From contig JAQIBT010000147.1 in assembly GCA_027858915.1 (NCBI GenBank), positions 1,855-65,854 on the forward strand: 64,000 bases of DNA, in the 5' to 3' direction. This document shows, one piece after another, positions 13,273 to 63,660 of this stretch (the first letter of the stretch is position 1; every line of letters begins with the position of its first letter). The notes under the pieces were generated by a model. That model searched no databases and was not told the DNA's origin. It was given only the letters and a program-made list of their open reading frames with translations. Made by a program: the position numbers and the translations under genes. This DNA comes from Salinisphaera sp. GTDB taxonomy: Bacteria > Pseudomonadota > Gammaproteobacteria > Nevskiales > Salinisphaeraceae.

Positions 13273-13273
13273 C

Positions 13274-18908: not shown

Positions 18909-20616
18909 CTGGCCAAGTGATCTGCTAGGACATCCACTTCTCAGCCCGGCGCTGCTGATGATCGTCGGCGGCTTCGTACTGGCTGCCAGTCCGCGCCAGG
19001 TGCACGGCGTGTGGCTGTTGGCCATACCGGCGGCCGCCCTGGCGCTGCTGTGGCAACTACCGCTGGGCCTGCACGGCGAGATCAGCCTGTTCGGCTTCGA
19101 TCTGACCATGCTGCGGATCGACGGGCTCAGCCGGATCTGGGCCACCATATTCCTGATCGGTTCATTTCTGAGCGGGCTGTATGCGCTGCACGTTCGCGAT
19201 CGTATCCAGCACGTGGCCTCGCTGATCTATGCCGGTGCGGCGATCGGCGCCGTGCTGGCCGGCGATCTGGTCACCCTGTTCATCTTCTGGGAAGGCACAG
19301 CCATCTCGTCGGTGTTCCTGATCTGGGCAAGGCGCACGGTGCGCGCCCATATCGTAGGACTTCGTTATCTGGTGATTCAGGTAACCTCCGGGCTGCTGTT
19401 GATGGTGGGCACCATCATCCACTACCGAGCTACCGGCTCCATTGCCTTCAATCATCTGGGGCTGGAAACTGCCGGCGGCTGGCTGATCTTTCTAGCCTTC
19501 GGCATCAAGGCTGCGTTTCCGCTACTGCACAACTGGGTACAGGACGCCTACCCGGAAGCCACAGTGACGGGCACCGTGGTGCTGTCGATCTTCACTACCA
19601 AGCTGGCGATCTATTCGCTGGCGCGCGGCTATGCCGGCACCGAACTGCTGATCACCGTCGGCGCGGTGATGACGATCTTCCCGATCTTCTTCGCCGTGAT
19701 CGAAAACGATCTGCGCCGTGTGCTGGCCTACAGTCTGAACAACCAGCTGGGCTTCATGGTGGTCGGTATCGGCATCGGTACTAATCTCGCGATCAACGGC
19801 GCTGCAGCCCATGCGTTCGCCCATATTCTCTACAAGGGCCTGTTGTTCATGAGCATGGGCGCGGTGCTGCACCGTGTCGGCACGGTCAAGGCCAGCGAGC
19901 TGGGCGGGCTGTACAAGTCGATGCCGTGGACGGCGGCATTCTGTATTGTCGGCTCGATGTCGATCTCGGCGTTTCCGTTGTTCTCGGGCTTTGTCACCAA
20001 ATCGATGATCCTGACGGCGGCCGCCGAACAACACCACTGGATCGCCTGGACGGCGCTGTTGCTGGCCTCGGCCGGCGTGCTCGATCATTCCGGTATCAAG
20101 GTGCCGTTCTTCTCGTTTTTCCACCACGACGTCGGCTGGCGCGTGAAAGAAGCGCCGCTGAACATGCTGCTTGCGATGGGCGCGGCCGCTTTTCTGTGCA
20201 TCGGCATCGGCGTCTATCCGGCACCGCTGTACGCGATCCTGCCGTTCGCTGTCGATTACTCTGCGTATTCGACGGCGCACGTGATCAACCAGCTGCAGCT
20301 GTTGCTGTTTGCGGCGCTGGCATTCGTGGTGCTGTTCCGCAACGGCTGGTATCCGGCCGAGATTCGCGGCCTGAATCTGGATTCGGACTGGGTCTATCGG
20401 CACGCCCTGCCGGCCATGGCGGCGCGGATCCATCGCGCACTGGTCGCCACGCGCGAACACGCGCGCGCAAAACTGGGCCGGCTAGGCTCGGGCAGCTATG
20501 GCTGGCTGAAGTCGCACTACGGATCTACCGGGGCGCTTTCGCGCACCTGGACTACCGGCGTGATGCTGCTCTGGGCTGGCGTGCTGTTGGCGCTTTACCT
20601 AGTGATCTACTACTGA
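18901..20616 (+). CDS. Na+/H+ antiporter subunit D/A-like (copy 3)
   Basis: LFIFWEG, GIKAAFPLLHNWVQDAYP, FTTKLA, RRVLAYS, HILYKGLLF, FVTKSM. Confidence 0.88.
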   Translation: MTDWPSDLLGHPLLSPALLMIVGGFVLAASPRQVHGVWLLAIPAAALALLWQLPLGLHGEISLFGFDLTMLRIDGLSRIWATIFLIGSFLSGLYALHVRDRIQHVASLIYAGAAIGAVLAGDLVTLFIFWEGTAISSVFLIWARRTVRAHIVGLRYLVIQVTSGLLLMVGTIIHYRATGSIAFNHLGLETAGGWLIFLAFGIKAAFPLLHNWVQDAYPEATVTGTVVLSIFTTKLAIYSLARGYAGTELLITVGAVMTIFPIFFAVIENDLRRVLAYSLNNQLGFMVVGIGIGTNLAINGAAAHAFAHILYKGLLFMSMGAVLHRVGTVKASELGGLYKSMPWTAAFCIVGSMSISAFPLFSGFVTKSMILTAAAEQHHWIAWTALLLASAGVLDHSGIKVPFFSFFHHDVGWRVKEAPLNMLLAMGAAAFLCIGIGVYPAPLYAILPFAVDYSAYSTAHVINQLQLLLFAALAFVVLFRNGWYPAEIRGLNLDSDWVYRHALPAMAARIHRALVATREHARAKLGRLGSGSYGWLKSHYGSTGALSRTWTTGVMLLWAGVLLALYLVIYY

Positions 20617-29238: not shown

Positions 29239-31626
29239 TTAATGGGCCCGCAGTTCGCCCGGCTCGCCCTTGTTCGGCGAATCGGGTTTGGCAGGTCCAT
29301 CAGGCAGCGGTTGAGGTTGGCGAGTCAACGCAATCTCGAGTACTTCGTCGATCGTCTTGACCGGCCGGATATCCAGCTGGTTCTTGATGTTGGACGGTAT
29401 CTCGACGAGATCTTTCGTGTTCTCGTGCGGAATAATCACGATCTTGATACCGCCGCGATGAGCCGCCAACAGCTTTTCCTTGAGTCCACCGATTGGCAAG
29501 ACGTCACCACGCAGTGTGATCTCGCCGGTCATCGCGACGTCCGCACGCACCGGAATATGGGTCAAGGCAGAGACCATGGACGTGCACATGCCAACCCCGG
29601 CCGACGGTCCGTCCTTGGGCGTAGCCCCCTCGGGTACATGGACGTGCAAGTCCGAGCTCTGCATGAAATCGCGCGCAATGCCCAGCGACGTCGCACGCGA
29701 TCGGATGACCGTTAGCGCTGCCTGAATCGATTCCTGCATCACGTCACCGAGCGAGCCGGTATGCAGCGGCTTGCCCTTGCCGGGGACCGCAGCCGACTCG
29801 ATCGACAGCAGCTCTCCGCCGACTTCCGTCCACGCCAGCCCAGTCACCTGGCCAACGCTATCGCGTTCCTCAGCGCGCCCATAGCGGAATTTAGGCACCC
29901 CGAGGTACTTGTCCAGATTGCGCTTGGAAACCTGCACGGTGGCGCGCGAAGTGTCGCTGATCAGCTCCTTAACGACCTTGCGACAGATCTTGCTGATATC
30001 GCGCTCAAGATTACGCACGCCGGCTTCTCGGGTATAACGCCGGATTACGTCGGTCAGGGCGTTTTCGGAAATCGAGATCTCCGTGTCCTTCAAACCGTTT
30101 TCCCTGACTGCCTTGGGCACCAGATAGCGCTCGGCAATATTCACCTTCTCGTCCTCGGTGTAGCCCGCCAGGCGGATTACCTCCATGCGGTCAAGCAGCG
30201 CTGGCGGAATATTGAGCGTGTTCGCCGTGCACACGAACATCACGTGCGACAGATCGTAATCGACTTCCAGATAATGATCGCCAAAGCTGTTGTTCTGCTC
30301 CGGATCCAATACCTCGAGCAGCGCCGAGGCAGGATCACCGCGGAAGTCGTTGGCCATCTTGTCGACTTCGTCGAGCAGGAATAGCGGATTGCGCACGCCA
30401 ACCTTGGCCATGTTCTGAATGATCTTGCCCGGCAATGAACCGATGTAGGTCCGCCGGTGACCGCGGATCTCGGCTTCGTCGCGCACACCGCCCAGGCTCA
30501 TGCGTACGAATTCGCGATTGGTGGCCTTGGCAATCGAGCGTCCAAGCGACGTCTTACCTACGCCAGGCGGTCCGACCAGGCAGAGTATCGGGCCCTTGAT
30601 CTTCTTGACCCGGCTCTGCACTGCCAGATTCTCGATAATACGTTCCTTGACCCGCTCCAGACCGTAGTGATCGGCGTCCAGCGTATTCTGCGCGGCCTCG
30701 AGATCGATCTTGGTCTTCGAGCGCTTCTTCCACGGTACATCGACCAGCCAGTCGAGATAGTTGCGCACCACGGTCGCTTCTGCCGACATCGGGGACATCG
30801 ACTTGAGCTTGTTGAACTCCGCGGTCGCCTTCTTCTTGACCTCCTTCGGCATGCCGACCTTGTCGATCTTTGCCTCAAGCTCTTCCAGATCGTTGGGCGC
30901 GTCGTCGATCTCGCCCAGTTCCTTCTGGATCGCCTTCATCTGCTCGTTGAGATAGTACTCGCGCTGGGACTTCTCCATCTGCTGTTTAACGCGCCCACGG
31001 ATCTTCTTCTCGATCTGCAGGACTTCGATCTCGGCATCGGTCTTGGCCACCACATGCTCGAGACGCGCCTGGGCATCGGCCAGCTCGAGCACATCCTGGC
31101 GCTCGTCCAGCTTGAGGTTCAGGTGTGCAGCAATGGTATCCGCCAGGCGCCCGGCGGAATCCATGCTCGACAGCGAGGGCAGCAGTTCGGCCGGCACTTT
31201 CTTGTTGAGCTTGACGTACGACTCGAAGGTCGACACGGCGTTGCGCATCAGCGCATCCATCTCGGCCGAATCATCCTCGGCTTCGTCAATGGTCGAGTAG
31301 TCCGCGATCAGACGACCGTCGGACTCATGCAGATTCGACAGACGCGCACGATCCGCGCCCTCAACCAGCACCTTGACGGTGCCGTCCGGCAGTTTCAGCA
31401 GTTGCAGAATCGAGGCCAGTGTCCCGACCTCATAGATGTCATCGGCGCCGGGGTCGTCGATGTCGGCCGCCTTCTGGGCAACCAGCAGAATTTTCTTGTC
31501 CTCTGCCATCGCCGCTTCCAGCGCCGTGATCGATTTCTCACGGCCGACGAACAATGGAATCGCCATGTGCGGAAACACCACCACATCGCGTAACGGAAGA
31601 ACGGGAACCAAGGCGTTGTCGGCCAT
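29239..31626 (-). CDS. lon: ATP-dependent protease La
   Basis: [34 protein letters not shown] catalytic Ser, IGGLKEK. Confidence 0.98.
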
Positions 31627-43155: not shown

Positions 43156-45351
43156 CTAGATTGGTACGAGCACAACAGCAGCCAGCGGCGGCAGCGTCAG
43201 GGCGATCGAGTGATCCAGGCCGTGAGCCGGCGTTGGCGACGTTTTGACAGTGTCGGCCGGGCCGGCACCGCTACCGCCATAGCGCGCCGCATCGGTATTC
43301 ATGACTACCCGATAGCCCTGCGGCGCCGGCGGCACGCCGATGTCGTAGTCGTAGCGGACTGTCGGCGTGAGATTGAACACGCAGACGGCGATATCTGCTG
43401 CGCCCGGGCCGAGCCGGCGAAACGACATCACGCTCTGGGCGTGATCCTGATGGTCGATCCAGGCAAAGCCGCTCGGATCGCAGTCGCCGTGGTGGAGCGC
43501 GGGCACGTCGCGATACAGTTGATTGAGATCGGCAACCAGCGCGGCCACGCCGGCATGAGAGTCGGCGTCGAGCAGCGCCCAATCGAGCCCGGCGTCGTGG
43601 TCCCATTCGCGCTCCTGCGCGAATTCGTCGCCCATGAACAACAGCTTCTTGCCCGGATGGGTGTACATGAATCCGTAGTAAACGCGCAGGTTGGCAAAAC
43701 GCTGCCAGTCGTCGCCGGGCATACGGCCCAGAATCGAGCCCTTGCCGTGGACGACTTCGTCATGCGAGAGCGGCAGGATGAAGTTTTCGTCGAACGCATA
43801 GACCAGGCTGAAAGTGATCTCGTTCTGATGGTGGGCGCGATACACCGGATCCAGCGTCATGTAATCCAGCGAATCGTTCATCCAGCCCATATTCCACTTG
43901 TAGTGAAAGCCCAGGCCATCGTCTTCCGGCGGTTGAGTCACGCCCGGCCAGGCGGTGGATTCCTCGGCCACCATCATGGCACCCGGCCGCTCGGTGCCGA
44001 TGACGCGATTGAGCTCGCGCAGGAAAGCAATGGCTTCTAGATTTTCGTTGCCGCCGTGTCGGTTGGGCACCCAGTCGCCAGCTTCGCGACTGTAGTCGAG
44101 ATAGAGCATGGAGGCCACGGCGTCTACCCGCAGGCCATCGATATCGAAGCGCTCGAGCCAGTAGAGTGCATTGCCGATCAGATAGTTGCGAACCTCATGG
44201 CGGCCATAGTTGAAGATCAACGTATCCCAATCGCGATGAAAGCCCTGGCGCGGATCGGCGTGCTCGTAGAGATGGGTGCCGTCAAAGCCGCCCAGACCAT
44301 GGTCGTCGGTGGGAAAATGGCCTGGAACCCAGTCCATCAGCACGCCGATACCGGCTTCGTGGCAACGATCGACCAGTTCGCGAAACGCCTCGGGCGAGCC
44401 AAAACGCCGGGTGGGTGCATACAGACCGACCGGTTGGTAGCCCCAGGAGCCGTCGAACGGATATTCCGAGATCGGCAGCAGCTCGATATGAGTGAACCCC
44501 ATATCCAGCACATAGGGCACGAGCCGGTCAGCGATCTCGCGGTAGTCCAGATAGCGGCTCGCCTGATCTTCCGGGCGCATCCAGGAGCCTAAATGCACCT
44601 CATAGAACGAGATCGCGGCATCGCGGGCGTTGGCTTTCGCGCGTGCCCCGTCGATCGGCGCTGCAGATGGCGGCAACTGGGCGACGATCGAGGCCCGCGC
44701 CGGGCGCAACTCGGCGGCGAAACCATAAGGATCGGCCTTGAGCGGCAGCAGCGTGCCATCAGCACCGACAATCTCGTACTGATAGCGCTCGCCCAGGCCG
44801 ATATCCGGCACGAATAGTTCCCACAGGCCGTTGCCGTGGCGAAACCGCATGGGGTGACGACGGCCGTCCCAGAGGTTGAAATCGCCGACCACGCTGACGC
44901 GCCGTGCCCCCGGCGCCCAGACCGCGAACGCCACGCCGACCACGCCGTCCAACGTGCGTGGATGCGCGCCCAGGCGCTCGAAGGGGCGTCGATGGGTGCC
45001 CTCGCCGAGCAGCCAGAGATCGTAGTCCGACAGCACGGGGCCAAAGCGATAAGTATCCTCGAACTCGGCGACATCATCATTCCAGCGCACGCGATACCGA
45101 TAGCGCGTATCGATATCGGCGTGTTCAATCCGGCCCTCGAACAGACCGTCGTCGTGGGCGCGCTCGAGTTCAGCCAACGCATCGCCGGTTTCGGCATCAA
45201 TCGCTGTCACCGCGTCGGCGTCGGGGAACAAGGCGCGCACGATCAGCCCGTTGCCTGCGACACGTGGGCCTAGCACCGAGAATGGGTCTTCGTGACGTGC
45301 CTCGATCAGCGCTTGAATATGATCACGAGAAAGCCGTTCGCTCGAGTTCAT
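43156..45351 (-). CDS. glgB: 1,4-alpha-glucan branching enzyme
   Basis: FAVWAP, YEVHLGSW, SWGYQP, DWVPGHF, GLRVDAVASM, AEEST, LPLSHDEVVHGK. Confidence 0.97.
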   Translation of the reverse strand: MNSSERLSRDHIQALIEARHEDPFSVLGPRVAGNGLIVRALFPDADAVTAIDAETGDALAELERAHDDGLFEGRIEHADIDTRYRYRVRWNDDVAEFEDTYRFGPVLSDYDLWLLGEGTHRRPFERLGAHPRTLDGVVGVAFAVWAPGARRVSVVGDFNLWDGRRHPMRFRHGNGLWELFVPDIGLGERYQYEIVGADGTLLPLKADPYGFAAELRPARASIVAQLPPSAAPIDGARAKANARDAAISFYEVHLGSWMRPEDQASRYLDYREIADRLVPYVLDMGFTHIELLPISEYPFDGSWGYQPVGLYAPTRRFGSPEAFRELVDRCHEAGIGVLMDWVPGHFPTDDHGLGGFDGTHLYEHADPRQGFHRDWDTLIFNYGRHEVRNYLIGNALYWLERFDIDGLRVDAVASMLYLDYSREAGDWVPNRHGGNENLEAIAFLRELNRVIGTERPGAMMVAEESTAWPGVTQPPEDDGLGFHYKWNMGWMNDSLDYMTLDPVYRAHHQNEITFSLVYAFDENFILPLSHDEVVHGKGSILGRMPGDDWQRFANLRVYYGFMYTHPGKKLLFMGDEFAQEREWDHDAGLDWALLDADSHAGVAALVADLNQLYRDVPALHHGDCDPSGFAWIDHQDHAQSVMSFRRLGPGAADIAVCVFNLTPTVRYDYDIGVPPAPQGYRVVMNTDAARYGGSGAGPADTVKTSPTPAHGLDHSIALTLPPLAAVVLVPI

Positions 45352-45473
45352 GGCGTGTCTCCGTTATGGGATGCGACCGCGATCCGACCCGAAAGGCCGT
45401 GGGCGCGGGCCACTTTTTTGCTGGAAAAACCAGACAGGCGCGTCATCGCCAGTTGCCAGATGTCGGGGCTGGC

Positions 45474-46934
45474 TCACAAAGCCGTCTGCTCGGCGGGCAG
45501 GAGCGAGCGATAGAGCTCGATATAGCGCGCAGCCGAGCGTTGCCAGCTGAAGTCTGCGCGCATGGCGCTCTCGCTTACGGTCTGTCGATCTTTCTCACAG
45601 CGATACAGCGCAATCGCACGCCTCAGCGCCTCGTCCATGGCCTCTGGCGTGACATCGGCCAATACGATGCCGGTTGCGCGACCGTCGGCGACGGATTGTT
45701 CTGTGGCGTCGATCACTGTATCGGCGAGGCCGCCGACCTGCGTCACCACGGGCAGCGTGCCGTAACGCAGGCCGTAGAGCTGGGTCAGCCCGCAGGGCTC
45801 GTAGCGCGACGGCACAAGAATGAAATCGGCGGACCCGATCAGGCGATGCGACAAGGCCTCGTCGTAGCCAATGGTTACTGACACGCGCTGTGGATAGCGC
45901 GCGGCCGCGTCTTCCAGGGCGGCCTCGATCGTCGGCTCACCGCTGCCCAGCAGCGCCAACTGCCCGCCGGCCGCGATCAACGCGTCCAGACCGGCCACCA
46001 CCAGATCGATGCCTTTCTGCTCGGTCAGCCGGCTGACCAGGCAGAACAGCGGCGCATCGGGCTCGTCTGCAAGGCCTAGCGCGCGTTGCAGCGCAGCCTT
46101 GTTGCGCGCCTTGGGCCGGGGATGGTCGACGTCGTAGTGTGCCGCCAGCTCGGTATCGGTCGCCGGATTCCAGACATCGACGTCGACCCCGTTGAGAATA
46201 CCCACCAGTTCTCCGGCCTCGCCGCGCCCGGCCAGCAGACCTTCCAGACCGACGCCGGCCGGGGCGGACTGGATCTCGGTGGCGTAGGTCGGACTGACTG
46301 TGGTCAACCGGTCGGCGTAGTACAGGCCGGCCTTCATGAAGCTGGCCTGGCCGTGGAACTCGATGCCGTCGACGTTAAAACAACGCGACGGCAGGCCCAG
46401 TTCCGGGGCCTGCTCGGCCGGCACCAGGCCCTGGAACGCCAGATTGTGCACCGTGAACACGCTGGCCGCCCGCGGCGCGCCGGCCAGCGCCTGCCAGGCC
46501 GGCACCAGACCGGCGTGCCAATCGTGGGCATGCACGACATCGGGCTGCCAGTCGTCGTGCTGGAACCGCGCGGCCGCCCAGCCGAGCAAGGCAAAACGAC
46601 GATGATTATCCGAATAATCCTGCTGGTTCTCGTCCAGATACGGATTGCCGGGCCGATCGAACAGGCCAGGCGCATCAAGTACATACGCCGGCACGCCGGA
46701 ATCGGCCAGACGGCCGGCGAGCACACGCGCCTCGGTGGCGCCGAACGCATCGCCCAGATCGAGGATAGGCTCGGCGTCTGTCAGCCCGTCGAGTATGCCC
46801 GGCAGGCCAGGCAGAAAAAGACGCGCGTCGACGCCGGCGCGAATCAGCGCCGGCGGCAGCGCGCCTACCACGTCAGCGAGCCCGCCGGTCTTGACCCACG
46901 GATAGACCTCGGTGGCCACGTGCAGCACACGCAT
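45474..46934 (-). CDS. glgA: Glycogen synthase
   Basis: KTGGLADV, HAHDWH, TVHNLAFQG, SRLTEQKG, PSRYEPCGLTQ. Confidence 0.97.
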   Translation of the reverse strand: MRVLHVATEVYPWVKTGGLADVVGALPPALIRAGVDARLFLPGLPGILDGLTDAEPILDLGDAFGATEARVLAGRLADSGVPAYVLDAPGLFDRPGNPYLDENQQDYSDNHRRFALLGWAAARFQHDDWQPDVVHAHDWHAGLVPAWQALAGAPRAASVFTVHNLAFQGLVPAEQAPELGLPSRCFNVDGIEFHGQASFMKAGLYYADRLTTVSPTYATEIQSAPAGVGLEGLLAGRGEAGELVGILNGVDVDVWNPATDTELAAHYDVDHPRPKARNKAALQRALGLADEPDAPLFCLVSRLTEQKGIDLVVAGLDALIAAGGQLALLGSGEPTIEAALEDAAARYPQRVSVTIGYDEALSHRLIGSADFILVPSRYEPCGLTQLYGLRYGTLPVVTQVGGLADTVIDATEQSVADGRATGIVLADVTPEAMDEALRRAIALYRCEKDRQTVSESAMRADFSWQRSAARYIELYRSLLPAEQTAL

Positions 46935-48203
46935 TTATCGGCGCCCTGCGGCTTCGGCCAGTGCTGCCAGCATGGGCCGGGTCACCAGCGTCACGCCGTT
47001 GTCCGTGCGCTCGAAACGGGCCCGGTCGTCGTCTGCGTCGTCGCCAATGATCATGCCCGGCGGAATACGACAACCGCGATCAATCACTACGCGCTTGAGT
47101 TTCGATCCCTTGCCGATCTGGACGTCAGGCAGGAGCACGGCTTCATCGAGACTGCTGTCGGTATGCACCACGCATTCAGAAAACAGTACGGAACTGCGGA
47201 TAGAGGAGCCGGTGACGATACAGCCGGCACTGAACACCGAGTGCTGGATCTTTTCGTTGAGCACGAACTTGGCCGATGGCAACTGTTGCTGATAGGTCCA
47301 GATCGGCCAGTTTCGATCATAGAGATTCAGCGACGGCGTGATTTCAGTGAGATCCAGATTTGCCGACCAGTAGGCGTCAATCGTGCCCACGTCGCGCCAG
47401 TAGGGCTCTTCATCCGGCTGACAGCCCACGCAGGAACGCGAGAACGGATGCGCATGGGCATGACCGTCGGCGACCAGGCGCGGGATGATGTTGTGGCCAA
47501 AGTCATGCGCGGATTCGGGATCGGCCACGTCGCGGGCCAGCTCGCCGTAGAGAAATTCGGCGTTGAATACATAAATGCCCATGCTGGCCAGTGCGCGATC
47601 CGGGTTTCCGGGCATGCTCGGCGGCTCGGCCGGTTTTTCCACGAAATCCACAATCTTCAGATCGTCGTCGACCGCCATCACGCCAAAAGCGGTTGCCTCG
47701 GCCAGCGGGGCCTCGATACAGCCCACGGTGCACTCGGCGCCGCTGGCCGCGTGATCAGCCAGCAACCGCGAATAATCCATCTTGTAGATATGATCGCCGG
47801 CCAGAACAACGATGTATTCCGGATCGTGCGAGCGCAGGATGTCCAGGTTCTGGAACACGGCGTCTGCGGTGCCGCGATACCAGGTGTCCTCGTCCACGCG
47901 CTGCTGAGCCGGCAGCAGATCGACGAACTCATTGATCTCGGCGCGCAGGAAATTCCAGCCGTGCTGCAGATGACGCAGCAGGCTGTGCGACTTGTACTGG
48001 GTGACCACGCCGATCCGACGAATGCCCGAGTTGAGGCAGTTGGACAACGCGAAATCGATGATGCGGTACTTGCCACCAAAATAAACGCCCGGCTTGGCGC
48101 GTTTGTCGGTGAGTTGCTTGAGCCGGCTGCCCCGGCCGCCGGCGAGTACCAGCGCCATCGACCGGCGCGTGAGCTCGTGCGAAGAATGGGGATCATATGT
48201 CAT
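46935..48203 (-). CDS. glgC: Glucose-1-phosphate adenylyltransferase
   Basis: [51 protein letters not shown]. Start set at ATG 48203 (GGAG RBS). Confidence 0.97.
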
Positions 48204-48277
48204 GTCTGACTCTCCTCGTCTGTGCGGCGGCCTTGCTTGATTGTGTTCGATGCGTTTGTCGACCGCTGCGGATTGGT

Positions 48278-49882
<1,605 letters not shown>

Positions 49883-51664
49883 CTAGCTGCGCTCATGGCC
49901 ACGCCAACTCTTGAGAAGTTCGGGGTAGGCGACGGTCTTGCCGCTGCCTTCCTCATCGGCGAGCTTCGGTTTCGGCGCGCCCGGGCGATCGAGCCAGATT
50001 TGTGGATCGATGGCGTCGTTGAGCCGCGGCTCGCAGCGTTTCATCCTCTCGTATTGCCCAAGGCGTGCCAGCATGGCGTCCTGAGATTCTGCCAGGTTGT
50101 CCATCACCTCCTGCGGTGTTCCCTGGCCAGTCCGCGCGCTCGCAATCCGCGTCCACCAGAGCTGGGCGAGCCGGCTATAGTCGGGTACCCCGGAACCGGT
50201 CGGCGTATATTTGTGACGCTCTGGGCTGCGATAGAAATCGAACAGGCCGCCGGGTTGAGGCGTGACCTGCTTGAGCGCCTCGGAATTGAGAACGCTTTCG
50301 CGGATCGGTGTGTAGCCGGCCAGAAGCTTTTTAAGAGCCACGCTTTTGCAAGTGGTGAACTGCGCGTAAAGCCAGGCCGCCTGGCGTTGTTTGACCGGCG
50401 TACTGTTCAGAAGCGTCCAGGAACTGCAGTCCTGATAACCCTCTTTCATCCCCGGCTCCCAGTAAACACCGTGCGGCGCCGGTGCGACCCGCCATTTGGG
50501 CGTGCCGTCAGCGTTCATAACCGGCAGACCCGGTTTCAGCAGGTCCGATACGAACGCGGAATACCAGAACACCTGCTGCGCGATATGGCCTTGGCCGGGC
50601 ACCGGCCCCGCGCTGCGGAAATTCATGTTCATTGCTTCTGGAGGCGCGTATTTGCTGACCCACTCCAGATATTTGCGCAGCGCATAGACGGCGGCCGGAC
50701 TGTTGGTCGCGCCGCCTCGGGCCACGCTCGAACCCACGGCATGGCAGTCCTCGACGCGGATGCCCCAGTCGTTGACCGGGCGGCCGTTGGGCAGTCCGGG
50801 ACTGCCGGCGCCAGCCATGGCCAGCCAGGAATCATGCATCCGCCAGCCAAGCGCCGGCGATCGACCGGCGTAGTCCATATGGCCGTAGACGCGCTCGCCG
50901 TCGATCTGCTTGACGTGGTTGGTAAAGAAATCCGCGATGTCTTCGTAGGCCTTCCAGTTGACGGGCACGCCAAGCTCATAGCCGTAGCGCTGGTGAAAAG
51001 CGTCCTGCAGATCGCGCCGGCTGAACCAATCGTGTCGGAACCAGTACAGGGTCGCGAACTGGGTGTCGGGCAACTGATAGAGATCGCCATTGGGTGCGGT
51101 AGTGAACGCCTTGCCGATGAAATCATCGACATCCAGCGTCGGCAGTGTGAAATCACCGCCGTCGCCGTTCATCCAATGGTTGAGTGGCGTGGCGGTTTCG
51201 TAGCGATAATGGGTTCCGATAAAATCCGAGTCGTTGACATAGGCATCGTAGAAATTACGACCGGTGCGCATCTGCTTGAGCAGGCGACGCACCAACTCAC
51301 CTTCGCGGATTACGTCGTGCTGCACACGAATACCGGTCAGGTCGTAAAACGCGCGGGCCAGGATCCGCGATTCGTAAACATGCGTGGGAATGTCTTCGGA
51401 GACCACAAATATACGCTGGCCCCGAAAAGGTCGGGATGCGTTGATGAAAAACGCCATCTCCTGCATCTGCTCGTCGGTGGACAAAGTCGACGGTTTGAAC
51501 TCGCGGGTCACCCAGCGATGCGCGGCGCGCAGGCGCGCCGGATTGGCCTGAGGCGCGGCATTGAGCCGGCCCGCGGCGGCCGCTAATCCGAGCGCGGCGC
51601 CGCCGGCGAGAAACGCACGCCGGGTAACGCCTGGTCCGGCCTTGGGGTTGGATTCGCGACTCAT
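49883..51664 (-). CDS. Tat-exported ABC-type solute-binding protein of the glycerol ABC transporter SBP family (GlpV-like)
   Basis: Twin-arginine TRRAFL signal; EFKPSTLS, YVNDSDFIGTH, LYQLPD.QF, LGVPVNW.AYEDIA, GIAQQ-like QGHIAQQVFWY, VPDY.RLAQLWW. Confidence 0.8.
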   Translation of the reverse strand: MSRESNPKAGPGVTRRAFLAGGAALGLAAAAGRLNAAPQANPARLRAAHRWVTREFKPSTLSTDEQMQEMAFFINASRPFRGQRIFVVSEDIPTHVYESRILARAFYDLTGIRVQHDVIREGELVRRLLKQMRTGRNFYDAYVNDSDFIGTHYRYETATPLNHWMNGDGGDFTLPTLDVDDFIGKAFTTAPNGDLYQLPDTQFATLYWFRHDWFSRRDLQDAFHQRYGYELGVPVNWKAYEDIADFFTNHVKQIDGERVYGHMDYAGRSPALGWRMHDSWLAMAGAGSPGLPNGRPVNDWGIRVEDCHAVGSSVARGGATNSPAAVYALRKYLEWVSKYAPPEAMNMNFRSAGPVPGQGHIAQQVFWYSAFVSDLLKPGLPVMNADGTPKWRVAPAPHGVYWEPGMKEGYQDCSSWTLLNSTPVKQRQAAWLYAQFTTCKSVALKKLLAGYTPIRESVLNSEALKQVTPQPGGLFDFYRSPERHKYTPTGSGVPDYSRLAQLWWTRIASARTGQGTPQEVMDNLAESQDAMLARLGQYERMKRCEPRLNDAIDPQIWLDRPGAPKPKLADEEGSGKTVAYPELLKSWRGHERS

Positions 51665-51679
51665 GGCTTGTCTCGCGGC

Positions 51680-52414
51680 CTAACGGAAATGAATGTTGGT
51701 CGGATTCTTCAGCAGTAAGTACAGGCCGGCGGCCAAGGCCGCGCCGATGAGTGGTCCGACTACCGGAATCCAGGCATAGCGCCAGTCGCTGTCGCGCTTG
51801 CCGCCGGGCATCGGCAGCAGCGCATGCATGATCCGCGGCCCGAGATCGCGCGCCGGATTAATGGCATAGCCTGTGGTGCCGCCCAGAGACAGGCCGATGG
51901 CGAGCACGATCAATGCCACCGGCAGGGCGTCCAGCGAGCCAAGACCGAATGTGGAAACAGCCAGAAACAGGACGCTGAATACCAGTACGAATGTGCCGAT
52001 AATCTCTGAAACAAGATTTAAAAACGGGTTGCGGATCTCGGGCGCGGTGCAGAACACGCCCAGCTTCAGGTCTTTGTCCTCGGTCCGGGCGAAATGGTCG
52101 AAATGCATCAGCCAGACCAGAAAAGCGCCGATAAATGCGCCGATGAACTGGGCCAGAAGGTAGCCGGGAACACGGCTCCAGGCGAACTTGCCCGCAATCG
52201 CCAGACCTAGGGTGACGGCCGGATTGATATGTGCGCCGGAAAACGAGGCTACGACCGCGACCGCGACAAACACCGCCATACCCCAGCCGAAGGTGATAAC
52301 GATCCAACCGCTGCCTTCGCCCTTGGTGCCTTTGAGTAATACGTTGGCAACGACGCCGTCTCCGAGCAGTACGAGCAGCGCGGTACCGATAAGTTCGCCT
52401 AGAAATGGATTCAT
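51680..52414 (-). CDS. glpF: Aquaglyceroporin / glycerol uptake facilitator
   Basis: Two NPA boxes (GAHINPAVT, GYAINPARDLGPR); GGAGG RBS to ATG 52414. Confidence 0.9.
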   Translation of the reverse strand: MNPFLGELIGTALLVLLGDGVVANVLLKGTKGEGSGWIVITFGWGMAVFVAVAVVASFSGAHINPAVTLGLAIAGKFAWSRVPGYLLAQFIGAFIGAFLVWLMHFDHFARTEDKDLKLGVFCTAPEIRNPFLNLVSEIIGTFVLVFSVLFLAVSTFGLGSLDALPVALIVLAIGLSLGGTTGYAINPARDLGPRIMHALLPMPGGKRDSDWRYAWIPVVGPLIGAALAAGLYLLLKNPTNIHFR

Positions 52415-52481
52415 CACCAACCTCCCTCACTATTCAAATCTTTTTTCGCCGTCGTATGTATCCGGGTTGGATCGGCCAGGA

Positions 52482-53306
52482 TCAGTGGGCGTCGATGCGT
52501 CGCAGCAGTTCGTCGGCCTTGTCCTTGAGCAGCGATTGATCGCCGCGAGTTTCCACGTTCAACCGAACGACCGGCTCGGTGTTCGACATGCGCAGATTGA
52601 AGCGCCAGTTACCGAAATTCATCGATAGCCCGTCGACGTGCTCAACCGACTCCGCGGCGTCCCGATAGGCGTTCTCCAGATCAGTCAGCTCGCCGTCCGG
52701 CTCGAATTGCATCCGCTTGATCTTGAGCGGCAGCCGTTTTTCCAGTTCCTGCACCACCAGGCCGGCGCCGCCGTTGCCGGGATTGGCCACAATCGTCAAG
52801 GGTTTCATGCTCTCCGGCTTGATCTGGCCGAGCAGGAAATCGATATAGTCCGCGCGCTGATCCAGCGGCTGGCGTGTGCCGGTGCGCGACGGCTTGGGGA
52901 AATCGGCGTGATAGGCACGTGCCTCGATATCGAACAGGCCGGTATCCGCTGAAATTGGCCGGGCCTGTTCGCGCACGAATTTCAGGCCGTTGTAATCCTT
53001 CGGATTATGGCTGGCCGTGACCATGACGCCGCCGTCGGCCTCCTGCGAAAAAGTCGCGGAGTAGACCTCCTCGGTGCCGCACAGGCCCACGTCCAGCACG
53101 TCGGCACCGCCATCAGTGATGCCGGCGATCAGCGCATCGGCCAGCTCCGGGCTGGACAGGCGCATGTCGCGGCCGACCGCCACGCGCTGGGCGCCCAACT
53201 CCACGACGAACGCCCGGCCAATGCGATAAGCCAGCTCTGCGTCCAATTCGTCAGGTACGCGTGCACGGACGTCATAGGCTTTGAAAAACGGGTAGTGATT
53301 ACCCAC
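52482..53306 (-). pseudogene. Phosphomannomutase/phosphoglucomutase (CpsG/ManB-like) with large in-frame internal deletion
   Basis: FKAYD, VTASHNP..YNG and C-terminal WRFNLR.SNTEP.VRLNVE are present. The DGD.DR metal loop and GE.S.H sugar loop are absent. 274 aa; junction near 52692 (FEPDG|ELTDLE). Confidence 0.8.
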
Positions 53307-53413
53307 GGCTCATGCCTCCTCATTCTTGTTGTAACTGCAGCTTCCTGTCATTGCCAGGAAGAACGACGGATGGCCCGGCTCGCGCTCCCTGCCCATGGCG
53401 GGCGGGCTGCCAT

Positions 53414-54463
53414 TCAGGCGATCGTGACCTCCGAAGATAAGTAGACATCCTGGACCGCGTTCAGGATCTCGATCCCTTCGCGCATGGGCTTCTGGAACGC
53501 CTTGCGTCCGGAGATCAGACCCATGCCGCCAGCGCGCTTGTTGATGACCGCGGTACGCACAGCCTGTTGCAGATCGTTGACTCCCGACGCGCCGCCGGAG
53601 TTGATCAGCCCGGCGCGGCCCATATAGGAGTTGGCCACCTGATAGCGGGTCAGATCGATGGGATGGTCAGACGTGAGCTGGCTGTAAACCCGGTCATGCG
53701 TGTGCCCGAAGCCGATTGCGGTGTAGCCACCATTGTTGGTCGGCAGTTTCTGCTTGACGATATCGGCCTTGATGGTCGCCGCCAGGTGAACCGCCTGCGA
53801 CGTCAGATCCGACGCGGTGTGGTAATCCACGCCGTCTTTCTTGAAATTGTCATTGCGCAGGTAGGACCACAGGACCGTGACCATACCCAGCTCGTGGGCG
53901 CGCTCAAAGGCAGCGGTCATTTCGCAGATCTGGCGGCGGCTGTCGGCAGAACCGAAATAGATCGTGGCACCCACGGCCACGCAGCCCATGTCGTGTGCCT
54001 GCTCGATGCGGGCAAACGGCGTCTGATCGTGCATGGCCGGCAGGGTCAGCGTCTCGTTGTGATTCAGCTTGAGCATGAACGGAATCTTGTGGGCATAGCG
54101 GCGCGCGACAGACGAGAGCACGCCCAGTGTAGACGCGACACAGTTACAGCCGCCTTCGAGCGCAAGTTCGACGATATTCTTTGGATCGAAATAGATTGGG
54201 TTGGGTGCAAACGACGCCCCGGCAGAATGCTCGATGCCCTGATCGACCGGCAATACCGCAAGATAGCCCGTGCCGCCAAGACGACCGTGGTTGAACAAAT
54301 GTTGCATTGAACTCAGCACGTTGGGCGTCCGATCACTATCTGACATCACCCGATCCACGAAATCCGGGCCCGGCAGGTAGAGATCGTCCTTGCTGAATGT
54401 TTCGCAGCGATGTTCAAGCAGGCTTTGTGCCTCGTCGCCAAGCAATTGCGTGATGTCGGTCAT
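53414..54463 (-). CDS. fbaB: Class I fructose-bisphosphate aldolase (DhnA/FbaB type)
   Basis: [40 protein letters not shown] (Schiff-base Lys), [10 protein letters not shown]. Confidence 0.95.
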
Positions 54464-54554
54464 GGGTCAGGTCTCCGTCTGGTCAGATCGCCGTGCGTTG
54501 CGCGTCGCCTGATAGGTGTTTTCGGTTTTTACAGCCTGTTTGTTTGGTCTGTTC

Positions 54555-55577
54555 TCATGAGGCCGGCTCGGCCTCAGCGCATAGGCGTTCGACGCGCTCA
54601 ACCTCGTTTTTCGAGCCGATAATTACCGGGCAGCGCTGGTGCAGATTGTTCGGCTGGATATCCATGATGCGCTGCGTGCCGGTCGACGCCGCACCCCCCG
54701 CCTGTTCTACGATGAAGCTCATCGGATTAGCCTCGTACAACAGCCGCAGTTTCCCGGCCCTGTCGGGATCCCGGCTTTCCCAGGGATAGAGAAAGATGCC
54801 GCTGTTGATCAACAGCCGATAGAGATCGGCCACCATCGAGCCGGCATAGCGCATGCTGAAGTCAAACCCACGCGGGCCGGACCTTCCAGCGATGCATTCA
54901 TCGATATAGCGCTGTATCGGCGCCGACCAGTAACGGCGATTCGACATGTTCACAGCGAATTCTCGGGTATCGCCGGGCACGATGAGATCCGGGGCCGTCA
55001 ACAGATACTCGCCGGTACCCGTATCCAGCGTGAAAGCATTGACGCCATCGCCCGTGGTCAGCACCAGAACCGTGGCCGGGCCGTAGAGCATGAAGCCTGC
55101 GGCCGCCTGATTCGTGCCCGGCTGCAGGAAGTCAGCGTCGGTGAGTTCGTCAGCCTTTTTCGGGCTCGGCAGAATCGAGAAGATCGTGCCTACGCTGCCG
55201 TTGATATCGATGTTTGACGAGCCATCCAGCGGATCGAAAACACAAAGCCATCCGCCTTGCCCGATTGTGTTCCTGATAGCAACCGCATTGTCCATTTCCT
55301 CGGAGGCAAGGCCGGACCAGTGTTCGCTCCAGGTTGTGGCCTCCAGCAACACGTCGTTGGACACAATATCGAGTTTCTTCTGGGTTTCGCCCTGGATATT
55401 CTCGCTGCCGGCCGATCCATGCATGCCAGCGAGGCTGCCTCGCCCGACGAGGTGAGCGATCTTGCGCGAGGCCTGGGCCAGATCATCGATCGCAGACGCC
55501 AGGCCGGAGCCGATCGATTGCGTATGCGAATCGTCGAGGAGAAAGCGTTTTAGCCCAATTGGTGCGCCGGTTGTCAT
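54555..55577 (-). CDS. fbp: Class 1 fructose-1,6-bisphosphatase
   Basis: N.QGE.QKKLD, SEE, FDPLDGSSNID, LYGP, RYAGSMVAD, KLRLLYEANP. Confidence 0.95.
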   Translation of the reverse strand: MTTGAPIGLKRFLLDDSHTQSIGSGLASAIDDLAQASRKIAHLVGRGSLAGMHGSAGSENIQGETQKKLDIVSNDVLLEATTWSEHWSGLASEEMDNAVAIRNTIGQGGWLCVFDPLDGSSNIDINGSVGTIFSILPSPKKADELTDADFLQPGTNQAAAGFMLYGPATVLVLTTGDGVNAFTLDTGTGEYLLTAPDLIVPGDTREFAVNMSNRRYWSAPIQRYIDECIAGRSGPRGFDFSMRYAGSMVADLYRLLINSGIFLYPWESRDPDRAGKLRLLYEANPMSFIVEQAGGAASTGTQRIMDIQPNNLHQRCPVIIGSKNEVERVERLCAEAEPAS

Positions 55578-55650
55578 TGTTATTTACCCGTTGTTGACGT
55601 CGCGATCTTGTCGTCCCGTAGCCACCGCAAAACGAGGCGATACTCTTGCA

Positions 55651-56833
55651 TTACCACTTGAGTGGCCTGGAGGCCGCTGGGTTATCCGCTACGGATTCGT
55701 TGCTCGCGTCCACGACGCAGCGAAGATACTCTGTGCCCTGGATGAGTATTTCTGCCTCGCGGGGATCTTCACGAATGTTTTCCAGCAGGCCGATCGCCTG
55801 TGCGCCGTAGCGCCGCCACAGACGCGCGCTCAGTGGCTCGCTGGAGTGCTCCGACGTGTAGCTGTCGAGCTGCATGAGCCTGGCCTGGTGGAAGAACTCA
55901 TTACGGACCGAGTGCGAGGGTTCGCCGTACCATTTGTAGTTGGGGTAAGGAAGCGGCACGCCCATGCTCTGCACGTGCTGACAGACTTCATCGCCCACGT
56001 TAAGGCAGTCCGTCAGCTTGCCGCCGCAGATGCAGATATGGGCATTTGACGTATCGGCATCGATCTCGTGCTTGCGCGAGAGCTGCAGAAAATCGCGGTC
56101 GCTGCCCGCACCGGCCTTCACGGCCAAGGGGCGCACACCCCAGCGCATGGCGATGACGTCGTCCCGGGTCAGCGTGCGGTCGAGTGTGAGACGCTTGTTG
56201 ATATTGTCGAGGATAAAATCGATGTCCTCGTCGGTTGCCTTGACGTGTGGGTCGTCCACGCGGGTATCAGTGGTGCCGATGCAGGTGCGATTGCCCATGG
56301 GAATCACGAAGAACAATCGCCCGTCGTCGGCGAAGAACGCCAGAACCCGCTTGTCCGGTGTGAGTTGGTCGACAATCAGATGCACGCCTATTGATGATGG
56401 CCTCGGCCTGCTTGATGCTGCGCTTCGAATGCAGCCGCGGCAGCCGCGTGAAACAGTTGCCCATGAACCAGTACAGCCACGTTCCAGCCCAGAGATACAG
56501 CGGGTGATAGCGAAAGCCTTTGGTGATCGTGGTCAGGAAGCGGATCTCCTGAACCGTCGACGGATAGTGCTTCATCAGGTGGTTACGGCTTCGGCACAGT
56601 TTCCTCACGAGCGTGTAGTCGTGCGATTCCATGTACTTGATGCCGCCCCAGGCAAGGTTGGACGAATTCATGCTGGTGAAGCCGGCAAAGTCACGGACAT
56701 CGATAAGCGCCGTACTCACCCCTTTACCAGCGAGTGCGGCTGCAGAAACCGCACCGTTGATGCCGCCGCCGATAGCGAGCACGTCATGAACGCCGTTTCT
56801 GAGCTTATCGATATTACTTTGGCGGAGTTGCAT
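55651..56833 (-). pseudogene. glpD: Glycerol-3-phosphate dehydrogenase/oxidase (GlpD-type), frameshifting internal deletion plus 3' truncation
   Basis: 5' part has IGGGING, DFAGFTS, GGIKY. At about 56390 it jumps out of frame into GVHLIV..DGRLFFVIP..IGTTD, WGVRPL, LSRKH, GGKLT. Homology ends at EYLRC (about 55717). Confidence 0.85.
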
Positions 56834-57191
56834 TACGATCGGCTCCCATCGATTCAGAGGCAACGCCTCTGAATGGCGCATCTAATCCGACATGAAAACT
56901 GGAATCCCTTGAAAAATACTGAGCAGACCTTGACGGTCGGTTTCTGCCTTGTTCTCTTCCGACACTAGCAACTGGCGCACTGTGATTGAAAGTTAACTAA
57001 AGGTCTTATATGGCATTTTTCTAGCAGATCGATAGCTGGACCGGACTTTCGTTAAAAATCCCTCTTCGGATCGTACGGAAAATCCGGAAGATATTTATAA
57101 TCGAGCCGGATTAGCACCGTGTTATTGAACCGGCGCTACAAATCCATAAAAGGCACAGCAAATATCCGTGCCCTTCGCTGAGGTATTCGGA

Positions 57192-57219
57192 GAGAAGAGG
57201 CCGCCCGCTCTGGGCGGCC
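57192..57219 (-). terminator. Terminator-like hairpin after the C45 gene
   Basis: ggccgccc/gggcggcc stem followed by tcttctct on the minus strand. Confidence 0.45.
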
Positions 57220-57289
57220 AACAAACCATGGCTTTCGTCAGAAAGCCCGTAGGGCAAAAGACTGCAATGCGTGTGCGGCCTCGCTTTTC

Positions 57290-61448: not shown

Positions 61449-63098
61449 CTAGAAACGACCTGCCCGCGTGGGCTCCCCGGTCTGCGGATTCAGGATCAAG
61501 CGATGCATGTCACGGCGATGTTCGCCGCGCTCACGCTCGCCATGGTCATGATGACCGTCGCTGAACCGGAACATGCTCATCAGAGAACCGGCCTTGGCGT
61601 CGGCGGAACCGCTGCCCAGACGACCCAGTTTCCAGTTGTCTTCGATGAACCGGAGGATCGAGGACTGGTCGGTCACGCTGTGATCGACGTAGTTGACGCG
61701 GGACCAGGGCGAAACGACCAGCAGAGGCAGACGCGGACCATATCCACAGCGGTCCTGTTGCTGGATGCTGCTCGCTGACGACCCATCCGGCTGGGTGCAG
61801 GTGCCGTTATTGATCAAGGCGTCGTTCTGCTGATCGTTGGACTGGTTGACGATCGGCCCCATGACGTGGTCGTACCAACCATCCGAATCGTCATAGGCGA
61901 TGACCACCGCCGTACTGGCCCACTCGGGCGACTTCTGCAGCCGGTTGATGGTCTGCACCAGGAAATGCTGCTCGTCCAGCGGATCGGAATAGGCAGCATG
62001 GCCATCCTGATAACCGGAGGCCTTGAGGAAACTCACCGCCGGCAGATTGCCGGAATTCACCGCATGCCAGAAATCGGTCAGCGCGTACTGGTGATTCGCC
62101 TGGTCCTGGTGCCCGATCATCGCAACCGATGTCGGCGGCAGATGATGCGGGTTCGAGGTGGACTTGTAGTACTGGAACGGCTCGTGATGCGGAATGTAAT
62201 CCGTCACCTGCACGCCGCCGACGTTGGCGTGCTGGGACCCGCATACGGCCTTGCCGTTGTCCGCCGAAGTCGGCCGGAAGCCGCCCTCGAACCAACCCCA
62301 GGTGATCCCTTTCTTGTTAAGCAGATTGCCCACGTTCGGCCCGTGCATTGAGACCGTCGGATACTTACCTGGCGAACAATCATCGAAGGTGGGGTTCGGG
62401 TCGTTGATGACCGTGCCGATCCCCTGGCCGTTCGTGTTGACCACACCATAGGTATCGGTTGCGGGCTGACTGGAAAGCCCGCCATAGGTCTGACCCGCGA
62501 CCAGATTGAGAGCGCCCGGCGTCGACGGACCGAAGCTCGTACCAAAGGAGTCATCGCTCATCGCAAAGTGCTGCGCATAATTCCACAGCGCGGTGACCGT
62601 GTTGCCGTCGTAGTAATCCATCACCAGACCCGGCTTGCCCACCTCAGGCGCTGCACAGCTGGACCGGTTGGTGTTTTCCACGAAACGATCCATCAGACCG
62701 CCGTCGAATGCCTTCTGCTCCGCCGTGTAACCATGATCCTGGTCGCAGGTCAGCGGTTCACTGTGGCTCAGGCGCTGCGGGTTGTACTGGTTCGGGTTGT
62801 GGTTGAGCAAGTAAGCGTTCAGGCCATTGACCGACGGCGTATCCGCGGCGGCGTGGAACTGCGGCACCCCCGCAGGATTCTTCGCATTCGGATAGGTGCC
62901 AAAGTAATGGTCGAAAGACACGTTCTCCTGAAAGATCACGACAACATGCTTGATCGGTGTCGTCGTCTGGCTCGGCTGGTCGGAATGACCATGGCCGAAA
63001 CGGGCCTGTGAATGCTGCGCCAGCACAGGCGTGGAAACCAGACACGCGGCAAACGCCGCGCTGCCCAGCGACAGTTTCATATTCACTGAATGTTTCAT
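61449..63098 (-). CDS. Secreted phosphoesterase / phospholipase C (AcpA-like)
   Basis: PIKHVVVIFQENVSFDHYFG, DQDHGY, STPGA, HHEPFQY, LPAVSF, YDDSDGWYDH, G.GPR.P, DQSSILRFIE. Confidence 0.88.
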   Translation of the reverse strand: MKHSVNMKLSLGSAAFAACLVSTPVLAQHSQARFGHGHSDQPSQTTTPIKHVVVIFQENVSFDHYFGTYPNAKNPAGVPQFHAAADTPSVNGLNAYLLNHNPNQYNPQRLSHSEPLTCDQDHGYTAEQKAFDGGLMDRFVENTNRSSCAAPEVGKPGLVMDYYDGNTVTALWNYAQHFAMSDDSFGTSFGPSTPGALNLVAGQTYGGLSSQPATDTYGVVNTNGQGIGTVINDPNPTFDDCSPGKYPTVSMHGPNVGNLLNKKGITWGWFEGGFRPTSADNGKAVCGSQHANVGGVQVTDYIPHHEPFQYYKSTSNPHHLPPTSVAMIGHQDQANHQYALTDFWHAVNSGNLPAVSFLKASGYQDGHAAYSDPLDEQHFLVQTINRLQKSPEWASTAVVIAYDDSDGWYDHVMGPIVNQSNDQQNDALINNGTCTQPDGSSASSIQQQDRCGYGPRLPLLVVSPWSRVNYVDHSVTDQSSILRFIEDNWKLGRLGSGSADAKAGSLMSMFRFSDGHHDHGERERGEHRRDMHRLILNPQTGEPTRAGRF

Positions 63099-63660
63099 TG
63101 AATTCCCCAATGTCAGTTGTTGTTGCGGCTCTGCACCAGATGCTGAACAGATCTTAAGTTGCGTCGCCGTTCAGCAATCGATGCGCGCGACGAAGGCCGA
63201 TGCGCCAGCTCGCGAGTGATACCACCTGGCAATAAGCCAGACCTGGCAAGTTAGTCGACTTCTATGACAGTTTGGTGATGCCGGCTCACACGCTTTATTT
63301 GACCCAGACGCACGTCGATATCGCGAGCAAGTCGGCCATAACGCCGACAGCGGTCGAGTCGCTGCCGGAACCACTCACCGCACGAATTCGTGGGCCGCAA
63401 AATCGGCTGTGATGTGCGCGAATGGCTGCTGTCGGCCCACACCGAAAGCGGCAAGCTGGGCATCGTAGTCGGACGTTTCGACCACGACCCGGCGCTGCAA
63501 AGATCGCGCGACCTCGCGGTCAGCGAGTACAGCCATGACGTACCGGCAATGCAAGCAACCCCAACGGCAGCCGTTTCCACCCAGCCCAGCCTTAATTGAG
63601 GCGGCGTGACCATTCTTTGGATATTTAGTCGCCAGAGTAATAATTCTGTATGTGCTACTG

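Follow-up and report, generated by a model that had tools for sequence, protein, structure and literature searches.

Genes for glycerol assimilation, upper gluconeogenesis and glycogen synthesis linked in one gammaproteobacterial chromosomal block from a saline spring

In Escherichia coli the glpFKX operon carries the gene of the fructose-1,6-bisphosphatase (FBPase) GlpX beside those of the glycerol facilitator and the glycerol kinase (PMC5892879), and both fbaB and fbp are induced in cells grown on glycerol (PMC3390287); co-regulation of upper gluconeogenesis with glycerol use is thus established in this organism. Glycerol ATP-binding cassette (ABC) transporters are encoded in clusters of the Rhizobium/Ralstonia type, with the gene order glpS-glpT-glpP-glpQ-(DUF2160)-glpV and with glpK, glpD and glpR (PMC11223650), while the genes for glycogen synthesis form glgC-glgA(-glgB) operons. 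The present analysis concerns a stretch of 64,000 nucleotides (nt) of contig JAQIBT010000147.1 (Salinisphaera sp.), hereafter the window, to which all block coordinates refer. It contains a block of ten co-oriented minus-strand genes (43156-56833) in the transcription order glpD'-fbp-fbaB-pgm'-glpF-binding protein-glpK-glgC-glgA-glgB, the primes marking broken genes. The gaps between them, from glpD' to glgB, are 73, 91, 107, 67, 15, 99, 74, 0 and 122 nt. The novelty of the block is the physical fusion of glycerol genes with glycogen genes, together with a convergent parallel described below; the parts themselves are ordinary. The original prediction, made from the sequence alone, knew of no description of this arrangement, and a literature search likewise found none.

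As in the E. coli operon, the glycerol uptake and kinase genes of the block stand with an FBPase gene in one co-oriented unit, for which glpFKX is a partial precedent. Unlike glpFKX, the block encodes a class 1 FBPase instead of the class II enzyme GlpX, has a class I aldolase, a binding protein and glgCAB in addition, and lies in a window where neither GlpR nor its operator was found. The adjacent and co-oriented glgC, glgA and glgB, with glgC abutting glgA, are like the known glycogen operons; unlike them, they are placed directly 3' of glpK (74 nt) and come without glgX or glgP. The binding protein is homologous to that of the glycerol ABC clusters, in which the nearest glpK relatives are also found, but the window has no gene for the ATPase, the permease or the DUF2160 protein of such a transporter, and its binding protein belongs to a separate, glpF-linked clade.

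Gene identities were scored in bits against the curated NCBIfam cut-offs and by Pfam domains (Table 1). The open reading frame (ORF) listing and the profile searches upheld the gene order, the identities and the co-orientation that had been predicted. Eight of the ten genes are intact, and seven of these exceed their NCBIfam cut-offs at full length, the exception being the binding protein. The start of glgA abuts the stop of glgC. Between fbp and glpF, which share a strand and are 2.1 kb apart with fbp upstream, there is nothing resembling a terminator. No glgX, glgP, malQ, tpi or pgi gene was found in the annotated part of the window (Pfam gene tables for about 5.6-61 kb plus the ORF at 61449-63110; about 1-5.6 kb is unannotated), in agreement with the earlier remark that these genes are missing from the cluster.

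We consider that there is a slightly better than even chance that the block functionally couples glycerol assimilation and upper gluconeogenesis to ADP-glucose and glycogen synthesis, by joining two known modules. It would represent a chromosomal join in an uncultured halophilic gammaproteobacterium. One module would consist of glpF and a GlpV-like binding protein without ABC partners, with glpK and glpD and, in several lineages, a class I aldolase and a class 1 FBPase; the other would be a glgC-glgA-glgB glycogen-synthesis operon. Transcription of the block would start in the leader 5' of glpD' and proceed, for the most part, as a single unit. Glycerol availability would then lead to the co-expression of uptake, phosphorylation, conversion of triose phosphates to fructose 6-phosphate and ADP-glucose/glycogen synthesis, and we infer co-transcription, induction by glycerol and a flux of carbon into glycogen. 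Oxidation of glycerol 3-phosphate and the reactions of triose-phosphate isomerase (TPI), phosphoglucose isomerase (PGI) and phosphoglucomutase (PGM) would be supplied from elsewhere in the genome. The aldolase and the FBPase yield fructose 1,6-bisphosphate and fructose 6-phosphate, respectively, both of them classical activators of GlgC in bacteria, where they act allosterically.

The complete set of steps, GlpK-GlpD-TPI-aldolase-FBPase-PGI-PGM-GlgC-GlgA-GlgB, is not present in the window, where the genes for GlpD and PGM are pseudogenes and those for TPI and PGI were not found in the annotated part; the block is therefore not self-sufficient. The original prediction had read it as a glycerol-to-glycogen pathway. 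Its logic, from uptake through GlpK, aldolase, FBPase, GlgC and GlgA to GlgB, is sound and the linkage is indeed unusual, but the pathway in the block is not self-contained. Nor does a dedicated, anabolic-only function follow, since GlpK also feeds catabolism and lipid synthesis, and any growth on glycerol needs aldolase and FBPase. The supply of glycerol by halophilic algae, to which the original prediction linked the module, is conjectural.

The genes glpD' and pgm' are truly broken. In comparison with the intact GlpD of 562 amino acids (aa) encoded on the metagenome contig L179, the N-terminal piece of glpD' corresponds to residues 1-147 (71% identity, frame -1) and the C-terminal piece to residues 248-475 (69% identity, frame -2), with about 100 internal residues (148-247) and the last ~87 residues (about 476-562) missing. 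NCBIfam GlpD scores for glpD' were 59.5 (C-terminal piece) and 77.6 bits against a cut-off of 360. Alignment of pgm' with the PGM of Xanthomonas citri (PDB 5bmn) covered only residues 23-225 and 405-462. About 179 residues have been lost in frame, a deletion which, if the standard domain layout is assumed, takes the metal-binding loop of domain II and the whole of domain III. The nearest intact relatives are Salinisphaera proteins of 451 aa (71-78% identity), phosphomannomutases/phosphoglucomutases (PMM/PGM) of the XanA type. In Salinisphaera orenii, the sole genome checked, the relative adjoins the GDP-mannose gene manC and not glg genes; pgm' can therefore not be claimed as a glycogen-specific mutase.

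The window sequence was found in three DNA runs of a saline-spring metagenome study, and four mine-drainage metagenomes carry a relative at about 97% identity on short contigs. These bridge six of the nine junctions of the block (glgA/glgB, glgC/glpK, binding protein/glpF, pgm'/fbaB, fbaB/fbp and fbp/glpD'); the glpK-binding protein, glpF-pgm' and glgC-glgA junctions lie outside the contig pieces listed. The glpD of the relative has 298 extra nt at window position 56389, which are the piece absent from the window. As 298 is not a multiple of three, their loss accounts for the frameshift in glpD'. The relative has lesions of its own: window positions 55649-55782 (134 nt, the 3' end of glpD) are replaced by 10 nt, a net loss of 124 nt, and positions 52690-53272 (583 nt of pgm') by 145 nt, a net loss of about 440 nt. 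Such different lesions in the saline-spring and mine-drainage populations are as expected for pseudogenes that decay independently.

No insertions or deletions were seen in glgA-glgC-glpK among contigs of at least 95% identity. When the 40 best-supported differences in glgC and glpK between the window and the mine-drainage relative were classified, 37 were synonymous and 36 were at third codon positions (binomial p ~1e-13 for the codon-position excess). The differences listed for glgC are synonymous in 34 cases out of 37, while glpK contributes only three of the 40 sites, all synonymous. Thus, glgC is clearly under purifying selection. The earlier statement that this copy appears to be decaying holds for glpD and pgm, as their lesions show, but not for the rest of the block, the differences in glgC and glpK being almost all synonymous.

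Conservation of the linkage was studied by five collection scans, four of genomes, with the binding protein, GlgC, FbaB or Lon as query, and one of metagenomes, again with the binding protein. They revealed no second copy of the ten-gene order and no genome closer than 65-83% per protein. Among glgC loci, the 80 nearest ones have 65-70% identity, come mostly from Burkholderiales and keep glgC-glgA as a conserved pair, and none has a glp gene within 10 kb; glpK was nearby at only two of the 80 nearest fbaB loci (Halomonadaceae, 77-83%). The background linkage to glp genes is therefore low, which bears out the prediction that glp, gluconeogenic and glg genes are normally at separate loci. The window FbaB is 82-83% identical to that of Salinicola, and an exact look-up of its sequence returned no record. 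The nearest glpK relatives were found on Logan contigs (84% identity), in Chromohalobacter (81%) and in Salinisphaera (78%). The synteny comparison proposed with the original prediction thus gave a divided result: the block as a whole is shared only with the ~97% relative, but parts of its linkage recur at L001, L017, L166-168 and L179 and in four alphaproteobacterial lineages.

The recurring core is glpF with the binding protein, joined by fbp and/or a class I aldolase gene in about nine lineages. The binding protein, the N-terminus of which is TRRAFLAGGAALGLAAAAG, has no relative in PDB and is matched by no NCBIfam model. Its identity is 54-63% to the binding proteins encoded in 98 glpSTPQ-DUF2160 glycerol ABC operons and 60-72% to the glpF-linked copies. 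Members of the family occur in two contexts, either in an ABC operon (97 loci, and one more that also has fbp nearby) or linked to glpF in the absence of ABC genes. When 157 homologues were placed in a neighbour-joining tree, all glpF-adjacent copies could be enclosed in a split of as few as 35 members, the window protein included, and none of them is ABC-linked (the window, L001-L012, L015-L017, L032, L040, L050, L165-L179 and L412). Genes for the ATPase, the permease and the DUF2160 protein are missing at all 35 loci. The window glpF is 74-83% identical to the glpF genes partnered with the same binding-protein clade in alpha- and gammaproteobacterial loci. Copies of the clade stand beside glpF or within a few kb of it wherever the contig is long enough, the gap in the window being 15 nt. 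A twin-arginine motif was considered as a marker of the clade and dropped, the regular expression having also matched a conserved internal ARRW motif. The constant company of glpF and a binding protein without ABC partners raises the mechanistic question of what a binding protein could do for a channel.

The clusters of L179 and of L001, a Competibacteraceae metagenome-assembled genome (MAG), resemble the window block in the glpF/binding-protein clade, in the aldolase subfamily (81% identity) and in the type of FBPase (63-65%), and L179 has an intact glpD of the same type. They differ from it in their permuted order and in the lack of a pgm remnant and of glgCAB, and their binding protein, glpF, fbp and glpK products are only 56-78% identical to the window copies. 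The closest binding protein of all, at 72%, is that of L001 (11-5813), which belongs to a family of glycogen-accumulating organisms.

In four alphaproteobacterial lineages (L032/L187, L407, L412 and L413) the same glpF/binding-protein clade forms the centre of clusters with genes for taking up and catabolizing glycerol and for an FBPase, a class I aldolase and a true GlgC; the glgC, which is not orthologous to that of the window, lies between fbp and the aldolase gene. At 562 bits this GlgC is above its cut-off (458), yet it is only 41% identical to the window GlgC, and the aldolase is of another subfamily (35% identity). Unlike the window block, these clusters have no glgA, glgB or pgm, and they have an intact glpD and regulators. 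The GlgC subfamily of these clusters is also found on its own, in Caenispirillum salinarum and at L410/L411. The presence of two GlgC subfamilies in glycerol clusters, one of which also occurs by itself, points to independent recruitment, and from these sequence relationships there appear to have been at least two such recruitments of glgC to glycerol/gluconeogenic clusters. In L032, a Rhodovulum MAG, IS110-family transposase genes (25-762 and 14069-15847) bracket the glycerol/fbp/glgC/aldolase cluster, and this version of the cluster may be mobile as a unit. In L407 a 581-aa call (protein P0142, 10001-11746) joins FBPase_C and GlgC domains in the manner of a fusion; it is most likely an assembly artefact, because the contig is full of frameshifts, with glpD, glpF, the binding-protein gene and fbp all split.

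Table 1. Genes and leader of the block in the window, and gene arrangement at related loci. Scores are in bits, followed by the curated cut-off where one applies; positions of the related loci refer to their own contigs.
Feature or locus	Position	Strand	Evidence or arrangement
glpD', N-terminal piece (FAD-binding part of aerobic glycerol-3-phosphate dehydrogenase)	56267..56833	-	Partial Pfam DAO and NCBIfam GlpD matches; pseudogene
glpD', C-terminal piece, other frame, without the last ~87 residues	55651..56385	-	NCBIfam GlpD 59.5 vs 360; pseudogene
fbp, class 1 fructose-1,6-bisphosphatase, 340 aa, intact	54555..55577	-	NF006779 483 vs 349; both Pfam FBPase domains (FBPase/FBPase_C)
fbaB, class I (DhnA-type) fructose-bisphosphate aldolase, 349 aa, intact	53414..54463	-	NF006707 635 vs 327
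pgm', XanA-type PMM/PGM remnant, 274 aa vs ~451	52482..53306	-	All NCBIfam scores far under cut-offs; pseudogene
glpF, MIP-family aquaglyceroporin, 244 aa, intact	51680..52414	-	Pfam MIP 156; TIGR00861 188.6 vs 171
GlpV-like periplasmic binding protein, twin-arginine-type signal, 593 aa	49883..51664	-	Pfam SBP_bac_1 25.6 vs 26; mainly identity to glycerol-ABC binding proteins
glpK, glycerol kinase, 501 aa, intact	48278..49783	-	NF000756 832 vs 498; TIGR01311 724 vs 590
glgC, glucose-1-phosphate adenylyltransferase (ADP-glucose pyrophosphorylase), 422 aa, intact	46935..48203	-	NF001947 667 vs 470; TIGR02091 504 vs 425
glgA, ADP-glucose-type GT5 glycogen synthase, 486 aa, intact	45474..46934	-	NF001899 659 vs 459; Pfam Glyco_transf_5 250
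glgB, 1,4-alpha-glucan branching enzyme, 731 aa, intact	43156..45351	-	NF003811 970 vs 741; GlgB_N, CBM_48, alpha-amylase and C-terminal domains all there
AT-richer leader, 456 nt, 5' of glpD'	56834..57289	-	Two hairpins closing the upstream gene; probable promoter/regulatory region of the block
L001 (Competibacteraceae MAG)	11-5813		glpK-glpF-binding protein-fbp-fbaB, then a second FGGY kinase; contig ends there
L179 (metagenome contig)			glpF-binding protein-glpD-fbp-fbaB-glpK, then a ferritin-like gene
L166-168			glpR-glpK-glpD-glpF-binding protein-fbaB
L017			glpK, glpD-like gene, then glpF-fbp-binding protein
L032 (= L187); L407; L413	1534-12515; 1913-12751; 4384-11725		Colinear glpR-araC-glpK-glpD-glpF-binding protein-fbp-glgC-class I aldolase
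L412	2807-12247		Divergent fbp-glgC-fba operon facing glpK-glpD-glpF-binding protein

Signals of transcription were sought in RNA data and in the sequence itself. A metatranscriptome contig 100% identical to positions 48169-48464 bridges the 74-nt gap between glpK and glgC, and further RNA contigs of 100% identity map to glgC, glpK, the gene of the binding protein and glpD' (three small saline-spring metatranscriptomes). The bridging contig is compatible with transcription and read-through. The intergenic gaps of the block have no terminator-like hairpin and fold no better than shuffled sequence, and a Shine-Dalgarno-like sequence was present at all five gene starts inspected. Upstream of the block, terminator-like G+C-rich hairpins occur on the minus strand at 57247-57230 and 57219-57199, 3' of a peptidase-C45/AAT-like gene. 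The non-coding leader before the dead glpD' is unusually long; neither a promoter nor a GlpR box could be recognised in it. Matches in a sigma-70 promoter scan were no more frequent than in shuffled sequence. A tblastn search detected no glpR homologue in the window, and no match to the GlpR box of the E. coli type was obtained at up to three mismatches, with a consensus that a divergent operator could escape.

Several observations weigh against the proposed coupling. The RNA consists of a few short, low-depth, unstranded contigs, for which carry-over of DNA is possible, and, with neither glpR nor a GlpR-type operator in the window, control of the block by glycerol is a presumption. Because glpD and pgm are pseudogenes in both sampled populations, two steps of the pathway are missing from the block, and tpi and pgi are absent from the annotated window as well. 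The exact arrangement is confined to one species-level lineage, that of the ~97% relative, and has no deep synteny; moreover, the 84% relatives of glpK sit in a conventional lysR/glpD/glpK-gap-glpR-ABC-DUF2160-binding protein cluster without glg genes. Finally, the alphaproteobacterial clusters contain glgC but neither glgA nor glgB, and ADP-glucose could serve another product there.

Some of these observations would fit a glycerol/gluconeogenic unit and a glgCAB unit that came to lie side by side after a rearrangement, each with its own promoter and regulation and with a linkage that is not under selection. The two modules do occur singly, L179 and L001 being without glg genes and L082-L093 having glgC-glgA without glp genes, and the arrangement has no depth beyond the ~97% relative. 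The scars of glpD' and pgm' mark a region that has been rearranged and deleted, and the gene affinities are mixed across the block. Set against this are the gap of only 74 nt between glpK and glgC, without a terminator-like hairpin and bridged by an RNA contig, and the different glgC that is found independently in the glycerol/fbp/aldolase clusters of four alphaproteobacterial lineages, which would be difficult to account for if the association were not selected. We regard such a neutral adjacency as possible though not probable. It is quite unlikely, on the other hand, that the whole block is a decaying, non-functional relic in which, with glpD and pgm dead, the other genes are being lost or have unrelated housekeeping roles. 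The additional and distinct deletions in the pseudogenes of each population (298 nt of glpD in the window; 124 nt at the 3' end of glpD and about 440 nt of pgm in the relative) are what such a relic would show, but the predominance of synonymous differences in glgC and glpK (37 of 40) and the lack of any insertion or deletion in glgA-glgC-glpK reflect purifying selection and speak against it, as do the eight remaining full-length genes, seven of them above curated cut-offs, and the detectable transcripts.

A further possibility concerns the product. Glucosylglycerol-phosphate synthase (GgpS) uses glycerol 3-phosphate and ADP-glucose as substrates. Glycerol 3-phosphate formed by GlpK and ADP-glucose formed by GlgC might thus be combined by such an enzyme into a compatible solute rather than a storage compound, especially in the alphaproteobacterial clusters that have glgC without glgA or glgB. 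The saline-spring habitat would suit this route, and glpD, the would-be drain on glycerol 3-phosphate, is dispensable in this lineage. However, a GT20/GgpS-like gene was found neither in the window nor in the alphaproteobacterial loci, and in the window the genes directly after glgC encode a genuine glycogen synthase of family GT5 and a branching enzyme, so that we hold the osmolyte route to be the least probable of the explanations considered. The coupling of glycerol assimilation to glycogen synthesis could also be part of something wider, a recurrent and horizontally shuffled "glycerol to ADP-glucose" supra-operon of saline and wastewater Proteobacteria. This would be built round an aquaglyceroporin and a binding protein that gave up its ABC transporter, a binding-protein-assisted channel and as such an undescribed mode of uptake, and it would direct glycerol carbon into storage glucan or a solute derived from ADP-glucose, the window, with glgA and glgB, being its fullest form. 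This broader proposal is speculative, and we would sooner doubt than accept it.

If the coupling is real, the operon architecture would mean that some halophilic or brine bacteria bank glycerol as glycogen and do not only burn it. Among the carbon currencies of saline systems glycerol is a major one, and the idea would bear on carbon cycling in brines. It would be relevant, too, to wastewater systems fed with glycerol and to their glycogen-accumulating organisms (a related cluster is present in a Competibacteraceae MAG), and the block would offer a compact natural design for the engineered conversion of glycerol to polysaccharide. The recruitment of two different glgC genes to glycerol clusters, if independent, would exemplify convergent operon assembly. 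Since none of the enzymes is new, the value of the finding lies in regulation and evolution and not in biochemistry.

With regard to the origin of the block, the nearest neighbours differ from gene to gene: those of glpK, fbaB and pgm are in Halomonadaceae and Salinisphaera, those of glgC in Burkholderiales, and those of the binding protein and glpF in Competibacteraceae and alphaproteobacterial MAGs. By these affinities the block looks like a mosaic. A plasmid or mobile origin was ruled out, as no transposase adjoins the block and its flanks are ordinary chromosome, with fadAB, an Mrp antiporter operon, rnhA/dnaQ, tig-clpP-clpX-lon-hupB-ppiD and tRNA genes; when 8 kb were compared with 72,556 plasmids by megablast, all matches were at gene level (70-74%). 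The Lon protein (29239-31626) is at most 73% identical to that of any GTDB species representative (n = 185,579), and its best matches are scattered over Oceanococcus, Thiohalobacter, Ectothiorhodospiraceae, Steroidobacteraceae and Competibacteraceae, which points to a deep-branching, uncultured and poorly sampled gammaproteobacterium as the host. The full Mrp-type multisubunit Na+/H+ antiporter operon in the flank (about 12700-20600), comprising MnhE, F, G, MbhD/MnhB, a NuoK-like subunit and three proton-antiporter-M subunits, is in keeping with a saline habitat.

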